Assembly: GCF_002854065.1 (NCBI RefSeq)
Contig: NZ_CP024152.1
Reading direction: 5' to 3' (one strand)
Length of the DNA: 64,000 nucleotides
Origin: Escherichia coli
GTDB taxonomy: Bacteria > Pseudomonadota > Gammaproteobacteria > Enterobacterales > Enterobacteriaceae
Shown: piece by piece, positions 60,001 through 64,000 of the stretch
Layout: each line of letters starts with the position of its first letter
Numbering within the stretch: the stretch's first letter is position 1
Made by a program: the position numbers

Positions 60001-63000
60001 AGTGCGTGGTACTCCATCATCAGGTACAGCAACGCTCTATAACTCATGGGGCGGTGCCGTAACTGTTGCTCCGGCTTCAACATCAGGTTTCAACAATGGT
60101 TTTACCGTCACCTATGAAAAAGTCCCACAGGATGCCTGTATCCAGATTGCCACACAAATCAGTCGTACTGGTTTAACTAACGGTATTACCCTGAACAGTA
60201 CGGCTCACAGTGATGGAAAAGTCACTACTGAAGAAGCCAGTGCGCAATGCACAGCTGATAATGGCAGCACCGGTACAAACAAACTAATCTTCACCATCAA
60301 TGGCTAAGGAGTTTTAATGTCCGGGGGTAAAGTGCCCCTCAGACTTATTTCATTAATCCTGCTTTGTTCTCTTATTTATCCCGCCCGAGCTTCATACATC
60401 GCCCCCAAACAAATCTGGACTAACAAGTGGGACAATTGCTTTGCCGCCGCCGGCGCACGCTATCAAATTGAACCATTATTGTTGAAGGCCATTTCTGCCG
60501 GGGAATCTTCATTGAAGCCGGGCGCAATTAACATAAATAAGGACAGAAAAACAGGCAAAGCCAGTAGTACGGATTATGGGTTGATGCAAATAAACTCAAC
60601 CCATATTCCAAAGCTTATAAAGATGGGCGTAATCAAAAAGTCTGAGGATTTAATTACCAAACCATGTCTTAATATCCATATAGGAAGCTGGATACTGGCA
60701 AGACATTTTCAGATATGTGGCGTCAGCTGGAATTGCCTTGGGTCATACAATGCCGGATTCCGTAAGGACAGACATGAAACAAGAGAGCAATATGCTAATA
60801 AAGTATGGAGAATTTATCGTGACATGAAAGGGATATGCCTTCCCGGGCAGGGAGGCAGACAATGCAGACAATCGTAGGCATAAGTCTCTCCCCTGTTTAT
60901 ATCCTCCCATTGATGTTCATATTTTCCATTATTGGACGAACTCTGTTATTCAGAGTTCGTTATTTTTTATCTGATACAGAACATCTCTGGTATAAGACAC
61001 ACACTGCAGTTCTGTCAGGAATATGGCTATATAGTATAGCTGTGGCATTAATTATTTTATCGTCATCCCCACTTATCTACCGTATTCATGCTGTTCTTAT
61101 TCTTTCGTTCATGCTGCAAATGGCAGTAACGGATGCACTAACAGGCCTCTTACCGGGTACATTCACCAGGCGTTTTTTAATCGCTGGAATATTATCACAA
61201 ATCACAACTGATATATGGTGGCTCCGTGCAACAGAAATTGTCTCTGCCGCAATTGTCTTATTCTGTCTGCATAAACTGGTTAACCGCCATCGTCTTAATA
61301 TTGGCACAGGAGACCTGTGGCTTATTGCAGGTATTACCGCATGGTCAGGGCTATATAACGCCATATGGAGTGTGTTGCTGGGCGCAGGAGGATTTGTCTT
61401 ATGGCATTCAACATGGTGCATAAAAGGACATAAAGAAGGCCCACTGGGTCCATGGCTGTGTCTTGGCCATGTCCTTTTGCTACTGGATAATCTTTATCAA
61501 CCACTATGGGTAATCTGATGAAAAAATATGACCGAGGCTGGGCATCGCTGGAAATTGGCGCGGCTTTATTGATTGTTATGATCATAGTTGCCTGGGGTGC
61601 AGGCATATGGCAGGACTATTTAAAAACCAAAGGTTGGCAGGCTGAAGCTCGTCTTGTCAGCAACTGGGCCAGTGCAGCCCGCTCTTATATAGGGAAAAAC
61701 TACACAACTCTCCAGGCCAGTAGTACCACAACAACCCCTGCCGTTATCACGACAACCATGCTGAAAAATACCGGCTTTTTGTCCAGCGGCTTTACTGAGA
61801 CAAACAGCGAGGGGCAGCGGTTACAGGCATATGTAGTTCGAAACACCCAAAACCCGGAATTACTACAGGCAATGGTTGTATCCAGTGGTGGCACCCCTTA
61901 TCCAGTGAAAGCACTTATCCAGATGGCTAAGGATATTACCACTGGTCTTGGTGGATATATCCAGGACGGCAAAACAGCCACAGGTGCATTACGTTCCTGG
62001 TCAGTAGCTTTAAGTAATTATGGTGCCAAAAGCGGTAACGGGCATATTGCCGTACTGTTATCGACAGATGAACTTAGTGGTGCAGCAGAGGACACTGATC
62101 GTCTTTACAGATTCCAGGTCAATGGTCGCCCTGACTTAAACAAAATGCACACGGCCATTGATATGGGATCAAATAACCTGAATAACATTGGGGCAGTAAA
62201 TGCCCAGACTGGTAATTTCAGCGGCAATGTGAATGGTGTAAATGGCACTTTCAGCGGTCAGGTAAAAGGCAATAGCGGAAACTTTGACGTAAATGTCACC
62301 GCTGGCGGTGATATCAGAAGTAATAATGGTTGGTTAATTACTCGTAACAGCAAAGGCTGGCTCAATGAAACTCACGGTGGCGGATTTTATATGTCCGACG
62401 GATCATGGGTTCGAAGTGTAAACAACAAGGGCATCTATACCGGCGGTCAGGTGAAAGGCGGTACTGTTCGTGCTGATGGTCGCCTTTATACTGGTGAATA
62501 CTTACAACTGGAAAGAACTGCCGTTGCTGGCGCATCATGTTCGCCTAACGGCCTTGTAGGCCGCGATAATACAGGGGCAATACTTTCGTGCCAATCCGGT
62601 ACGTGGAAGACTTCTGGTTCGCTCAATGGTTCTTACACAAACTTAGGTTCACATAGAGGTTCATTCTCAGGGCGGAATTCAGGGGGCAGTACATTGTTTA
62701 TTTATGCATCTGGAGGTAATGGAGGATCTGCCGGAGGTGCATGTGCAAATACATCCCGACTGCAGGGATATGTTGGTGGGACGCTAATTAGCGTGAATGC
62801 CAGCAATAACCCTGCATATGGAAAAACAGCCTTTATCAGCTTTGCTGTACCTGCAGGTACTTCCTATCAGATAACATCCTATCCAACAGAAAATACATCA
62901 TGTGGTGCCGGGGTATTTTCAGTATTTGGATATCAAACTTAATTGAGCGTTACACACGACGCAATACAACCTGTCTTATGCTCGTATTTGTACCATTTAC

Positions 63001-64000
63001 GTGAACCTGCTGGGCTCTCAACTACCTGGCAGTAGTGGGCATCCTCTGCGTTGCCCATTCTGGCAATGGCACAGAAGTCGAATTGCCCCAGATAACCTGT
63101 GGTGGAAAGCTGAGTAACTTTGAGTTTTCCACCTATTGTCCTCCACGTACCGGATTGGCACTGGCCTACGTGCCAATCCGGTACCTGGAGAAAGGTAGGA
63201 TCTGGTGAGCTTCAAATTGCTACAGCACAGGCGACAGGTTGGCGCTTTCCTGGAGCAACAGCTACCTGTCCAACTGGAAAACGTGTTACAGGTGGCGGCG
63301 GAATATGCACCTCACGAACTGGTTACATATGGCTTACCAGGTCATTCCCATCAGCCAATAACTCATGGTCGGCTGCGTGCGATACAACCGAAGATCAGAA
63401 TGGTTCAATAACTGTATATGCCATTTGCCAATAAGCTATTTCAAGCAAGTAATCTTCATAAAGTAGGACGAATACTGTGTGTAGTTTTTGGCTTGCCAAG
63501 TCATCTCGCCGTTAGAGTCAGGCATGTCAATAGGAACGACTTCTGTTTCTGCCATTTCACGCCCGTCAATACGATAGGTGTTAATACACAGTTTAAACCT
63601 CCCTAAGACCTGTGTGTTTTTGGGATATAACGTAAATGTTTTTATATTCGTCCATATCGACGCTGATGATGATTTCCAGGTACCGGATTGGCACGTAGGC
63701 CAGCAGCGCCAGCAATTTAATCTCAGTTCTGACACGCGACGACATAACTACATTTTCCGGTTAAATCAGCTCTAAATGTCCCTTTATGGAAATTGTATTC
63801 ATCATAAAAACCACATTTAACAATTCGATTTGCATCATAAGTTGCAACTGATCCAGCAAAGTAATTCGGCTTCCAACCTTGAGGGTTTTCTGCATTGCTC
63901 ACACTCCATGAGCACTGACTGGCAGAAAATCCTGTTGGCAGCGGTATTTGCTGACCATTTGCTATACGACCAGTTATCACCGTACTACCAGAATTGCTTT

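Follow-up and report, generated by a model that had tools for sequence, protein, structure and literature searches.

Positions 61506-64000 of the analysed window, a 64,000-nt stretch of the Escherichia coli contig NZ_CP024152.1, were identified as pilV together with the pilV-proximal three quarters of a canonical R64-type (IncI1) shufflon, a reading to which we assign a probability of approximately 95%. Shufflons have been characterised since 1986-87, and that of R64 was reportedly described by Komano et al. in 1987. The R64-type system is thus already known, and as the present copy is nearly identical to that of R64, its identification is correct but ordinary.

Thin-pilus operon, sfx sites and segments

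The window was collinear throughout with NZ_CP075377.1, an IncI-complex conjugative plasmid (MOBP, MPF_I). A type IVB thin-pilus operon, with ORFs matching pilN-pilU in size and order (53605..61518, plus strand), was located upstream of pilV, and NZ_CP075377.1 was 99.99-100% identical there (Table 1). The complete pilV ORF extended over 61506-62942 on the plus strand and encoded a 474-aa PilV, of which residues 33-361 matched the Pfam family PF04917 (Shufflon_N) with an E value of 4.5e-186. This match ended at the first sfx repeat, which starts at about codon 357, where the constant region gives way to the variable part. Comparing the encoded PilVA with PilVA of R64, we found 463 of 474 residues identical; the 11 substitutions were confined to the constant region, all at residue 224 or below, and the variable part was identical.

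The full 64-kb window was then searched with the pattern GTGCCAATCCGGTNNNTGG, tolerating no more than 2 mismatches, and 100 dinucleotide-preserving shuffles served as the background. Four exact sites, each with 0 mismatches, were detected in the orientation order + - + -, versus a mean of 0.03 sites per shuffle, and 0 of the 100 shuffles reached four. The same repeat pairs were recovered independently by a repeat finder, which also placed sfx 4 within a 29-nt perfect inverted repeat (63161-63189 and 63675-63703) flanking segment B. Each 19-bp sfx was composed of the 7-bp core GTGCCAA and the 12-bp right arm TCCGGTNNNTGG, and inverted copies were present. These data confirmed the four 19-bp repeats of alternating orientation that had been proposed from the sequence alone, with one correction: the two middle repeats had been assigned to 63142-63160 and 63169-63187, in each case 1 nt too low. 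One could argue that a pilin gene happens to contain these inverted repeats and that they have no role in recombination, but nothing speaks for this beyond the random occurrence of short repeats in general. Four exact 19-mers against 0.03 expected, sequences identical to the sfx of R64, and inversion breakpoints falling exactly at sfx in near-identical plasmids, however, leave this explanation a vanishingly small probability.

Table 1. Coordinates of the thin-pilus, pilV and shufflon features in the window (names of pilN to pilU are taken from the annotation of NZ_CP075377.1 and pN333)
Feature	Position	Strand	Length	Remarks
pilN	53605-55287	+		ORF
pilO	55280-56575	+		ORF
pilP	56562-57014	+		ORF
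pilQ	57025-58578	+		ORF
pilR	58591-59676	+		ORF
pilS	59693-60307	+		ORF
pilT	60317-60877	+		ORF
pilU	about 60862-61518	+		ORF
pilV constant (N-terminal) region	61506..62587	+		Shufflon_N; alternative start at 61518
sfx 1 (GTGCCAATCCGGTACGTGG)	62588-62606	+		ACG type; inside the pilV reading frame
Segment A	62607..63142		536 bp	99.6% identical to the pRWS532 counterpart, itself 100% identical to that of R64
ORF A	62589-62942	+		In frame with pilV; stop 62940-62942
ORF A'	63160-62939	-		Stop 62939-62941
sfx 2	63143-63161	-		ACG type
Inter-segment spacer TGGCCTAC	63162..63169	.		Supplies the larger part of the 12-bp left arm in both sfx 2 and sfx 3
sfx 3 (GTGCCAATCCGGTACCTGG)	63170-63188	+		ACC type
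Segment B	63189..63675		487 bp	99.6% identical to the pRWS532 counterpart, itself 99.6% identical to that of R64
ORF B'	63171-63434	+		Peptide similar to pESBL B' (ratio about 0.98)
ORF B	63693-63436	-		Peptide similar to pESBL B (ratio about 0.98)
sfx 4	63676-63694	-		ACC type
Segment D	63695..64000	-	306/310 bp present	Cut at the window end; 303/306 identical to pRWS532
ORF D'	64000 to stop 63723-63725	-	91 codons	Peptide matches pESBL 'D'

Segments A and B were complete in the window, and the left end of segment D carried no sfx, as in R64. The frames A, A', B' and B each opened with CQSGTW in the sfx frame and read through to a stop codon. D' lay in the corresponding sfx frame with its opening cut by the window end; comparison with pRWS532 showed that this frame lacked only its first 8 codons, and placed the predicted start of its sfx some 5 nt after position 64000. 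At least four alternative PilV C-termini had been listed in the original prediction; all four listed were real, and a fifth, D', had been overlooked. Because A is in frame with pilV, PilVA is the adhesin expressed in the present arrangement, with A', B', B and D' silent. When the five C-terminal peptides were scanned in isolation against NCBIfam and Pfam, no family was matched. Segment names follow the re-annotation of pESBL-EA11 (NC_018659.1) by Yamaichi et al., in which they were carried over from R64 (PMC4288162); the names A', B', B and D taken from that plasmid agree with a pN581 annotation. The cassettes are tightly packed at their ends: the stop codons of A and A' overlap in the TTAA at 62939-62942, such that the two cassettes converge stop to stop, and those of B' and B are one base apart (63435).

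The 8-bp junction between the middle sfx sites

The spacing of 8 bp between the two middle repeats proved real (Table 1). It had been read as the mark of one specific configuration in which the shufflon was captured. In R64 and in each relative with a complete shufflon, though, two back-to-back (-)/(+) sfx junctions 8 bp apart were found, and the junction 8-mer was identical in R64 and all relatives examined, being either TGGCCTAC or its complement GTAGGCCA. We then modelled the inversions, representing the shufflon by its cores, two spacers, the segments A, B and C with two ends each and segment D with a single end, and allowing inversion between any pair of opposite cores. The model yielded 288 distinct reachable arrangements, with exactly seven segment ends that could be fused to pilV, and both spacers kept their (-) core/(+) core flanks in 288 of 288 arrangements. 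This result indicated that the 8-bp junction is an invariant of the system and no property of the captured configuration. Thus, the spacing does not single out a configuration: it is the canonical junction, occurs twice in R64 and is unchanged by the modelled inversions. The description of a segment boundary with essentially no cargo was accurate, although this is the normal state of such shufflons, and the phrase "captured in one configuration" is uninformative, as any single assembled sequence shows one configuration. According to the model, the pattern of the window (A+, spacer, B'+, D+) leaves two complete-shufflon arrangements, which differ in the orientation of segment C alone.

At the junction, the left arm of each site takes in the whole 8-bp spacer and a further 4 nt from the core of its neighbour, so that the two complete sites of 31 bp have 16 bp in common (63158-63173); such an overlap would be tolerable because the left arm sequence is not conserved. 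Inversion of the junction itself was considered for the occurrence of the 8-mer in both orientations and was rejected as unnecessary, since larger inversions spanning the junction flip the spacer.

The end of segment D that has no sfx (63695-63703, GTAGGCCAG) consists of the spacer 8-mer plus the first core base, forms the left arm of sfx 4, and lengthens the perfect inverted repeat flanking segment B to its 29 nt. The bases that follow GTAGGCCAG (GCAGCGCCAGCAATTTAAT) bear a weak resemblance to sfx. Given this composition of GTAGGCCAG, the D end may have descended from an eighth sfx, with which a 'D' frame would have been lost; separately, as the full sites overlap at each 8-bp junction, their occupancy by Rci might be mutually exclusive and so bias the inversions. 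We consider both proposals unlikely. If true, either would slightly refine what is known of the R64 shufflon, without amounting to a new system.

Arrangements in related plasmids and the distal shufflon

Deposited relatives were used as a substitute for read data on arrangement changes. In the R64 deposit (IncI1; NC_005014), seven sfx of the same types occur, including the ACG and ACC variants, and its segments (536, 487, 310, and 455 bp) matched their counterparts in the window and the relatives at 99-100% identity. R64 shares with the window the segments A, B and D at 99-100% DNA identity as well as the same pilV context and Shufflon_N. The two differ in order, which is A, D, 8 bp, C, 8 bp, B in R64 and A, 8 bp, B, D in the window, arrangements that are three modelled inversions apart. 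Furthermore, the window, unlike the R64 deposit, does not reach as far as the D' sfx, segment C or rci. The complete set of segments A-D with seven sfx was found in three relatives, and the cleanly parsed arrangements (R64 and three relatives, two of them shared with the preceding set) were 2-4 modelled sfx inversions away from a window-type arrangement.

The closest relatives were the plasmids NZ_CP075376.1 and NZ_CP075377.1 of a single strain, E. coli no107. Both were collinear with the full window, 99.5-100% identical to it from 35657 on, and carried a complete seven-sfx shufflon followed by rci, with segment D inverted relative to the window. NZ_CP075377.1 was 100% identical to window positions 60360-63703, and positions 63682-64000 were likewise matched at 100% identity in inverted orientation, the breakpoint being sfx 4; its segment D was thus 100% identical to that of the window and inverted. 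In NZ_CP075376.1, segments A and D were both inverted relative to the window. Among five laboratory derivatives of one isolate, EC0026B, the annotated pilV genes measured 1155, 1278, 1383, 1383, and 1437 bp. A record matching the window in both backbone and arrangement was not found in the plasmid or E. coli collections. Identical backbones with other arrangements, and breakpoints located exactly at sfx, indicate that the shufflon of this plasmid lineage has been active very recently. By extension from these relatives, switching would be ongoing on the present molecule.

A tblastn search of the window with Rci detected no homologue (best E=1.4). In all relatives examined, rci lay directly downstream of the shufflon, and in the collinear plasmids pN333 and pRWS532 it started 75 and 576 nt, respectively, beyond the equivalent of the window end. 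Rci of NZ_CP075377.1 was intact (384 aa) and identical to R64 Rci at 383 of 384 residues. The proposal that rci and the remaining segments lie beyond the window agreed with these collinear relatives, from which we infer the presence and integrity of rci on the present molecule; the last three sfx sites and segment C/C' should follow beyond the window end. Nevertheless, the distal shufflon here could be shorter, given the reduced shufflons of the relatives pN333 and pN581, which have five sfx and no segment C, with rci of pN581 annotated at a shorter 1011 nt. Such reduced relatives, together with the location of rci outside the window, are what could be put forward for a fossil shufflon, in which repeats and segments are intact, the switch is locked by loss or inactivation of rci or by a distal deletion, and PilVA is permanent. 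All four sfx sites of the window are perfect, however, and the closest relatives, being 100% identical in the pil-shufflon region, have an intact 384-aa Rci and differ by sfx-bounded inversions only, so that we regard a locked switch as very unlikely.

Irregular shufflons were observed among the deposited relatives, namely in NZ_OX460332, OX460328, OX460318, OX460338, pESBL-EA11, pN333 and pN581. Across these deposits, segments of 583, 419 or 367 bp occurred, segment D was present twice, and pESBL-EA11 had only six exact sfx matches. These records reflect either the misassembly of populations with mixed arrangements or genuine deletions and duplications brought about by Rci. The arrangement of the window might in the same way be an assembly artefact, that is, a consensus or chimera of mixed shufflon states that matches no single molecule. 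Misassembly of shufflons is documented, one clone holding many arrangements (PMC5430464), and several related deposits have odd segment sizes or a duplicated D. Yet the window arrangement is among the states that the inversion model allows, its full-length segments match the reference segments at 99.6-100% identity, and the order A, 8 bp, B, D recurs independently in pN333 and pRWS532. We therefore give an artefact a marginally lower probability still than a locked switch, and retain the reading of a canonical R64-type shufflon.

Outside the shufflon, the window was 95-98% identical to NZ_CP075377.1 over positions 1-35656 (traY, excA, trbABC, nikAB, leading region and par) and 99.5-100% identical over positions 35657-64000 (rep, colicin Ia, pil and shufflon). 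This step in identity at 35656/35657 suggests that the plasmid backbone may be mosaic or recombinant. NZ_CP075377.1 carries a 1.68-kb IS91-family transposase insertion (L013 19072-20754) at the equivalent of window position ~42790-42794, which is absent from the window and likewise from NZ_CP075376.1. Three direct copies of 330-500 nt, 80-91% identical to one another, were observed at 15502-15829, 18359-18856 and 24704-25200, and a second repeated pair, 92% identical, at 19546-19899 and 26493-26844. Judged by collinearity with NZ_CP075377.1, these repeats sit between ssb and the ardA/Rpn-nuclease genes on the leading-region side. We presume that the repeats at 15502-26844 could be single-strand promoter repeats of the ssi/Frpo type.

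Proposed switching mechanism and significance

An sfx site spans 31 bp, in which the 7-bp core lies between a left and a right arm of 12 bp each (PMC11852207; PMC4176322). The tyrosine recombinase Rci works without a cofactor and, the sites being asymmetric, recombines inverted sfx only (PMC4176322; PMC11852207). On the present plasmid, Rci, encoded directly downstream, would bind the core GTGCCAA and the 12-bp right arm of each 31-bp sfx, and strand exchange would take place in the core, between inverted sites only. An exchange involving sfx 1 would join the constant region of PilV to another segment end, with the outcome that one of seven C-termini (A, A', B, B', C, C' or D') is chosen. The 8-bp junction is the point at which two two-ended segments meet back to back; the left arm that each site draws there from the spacer and from 4 nt of the adjacent core needs no specific sequence.

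In the R64 literature, the PilV C-terminus sets recipient specificity in liquid matings (PMC5430464, PMC11852207), and PilVA, PilVB', PilVC and PilVC' are reported to recognise distinct GlcNAc/Glc linkages in the LPS of E. coli R1, K-12 and Salmonella LT2 (PMC5430464). PilV of the present plasmid would likewise act as the adhesin at the tip of the thin type IVB pilus, its C-terminus binding particular recipient LPS cores in liquid matings, and the LPS specificity of the PilVA adhesin here is assumed by analogy.

Among the other known systems, the IncI2 shufflons (R721, TP114 and mcr-1 plasmids) follow the same principle of Rci and a PilV C-terminus and have a closely related repeat, GTGCCAATCCGGTNNGTGGA (PMC5430464). 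Their segment set is A, BD and C, in which one segment carries B' at one end and D' at the other, and their pilV and backbone differ; the segments of the window match the IncI1/R64 set, not the IncI2 set. The SusC/SusD shufflon of Bacteroides with Tsr0667, and the serine invertases Hin, Gin and Min, likewise switch surface proteins by site-specific inversion (PMC11852207), but their recombinases, sites and cargo are unrelated to the R64-type shufflon and belong to other families (PMC11852207).

Beyond correct annotation, the identification is of little value, and its practical use is modest. A', B', B and D' are to be annotated as silent cassettes rather than as "hypothetical proteins". Differences in this region among otherwise identical plasmids are to be read as states of a switch, rather than as a sign of evolutionary divergence or of distinct lineages.
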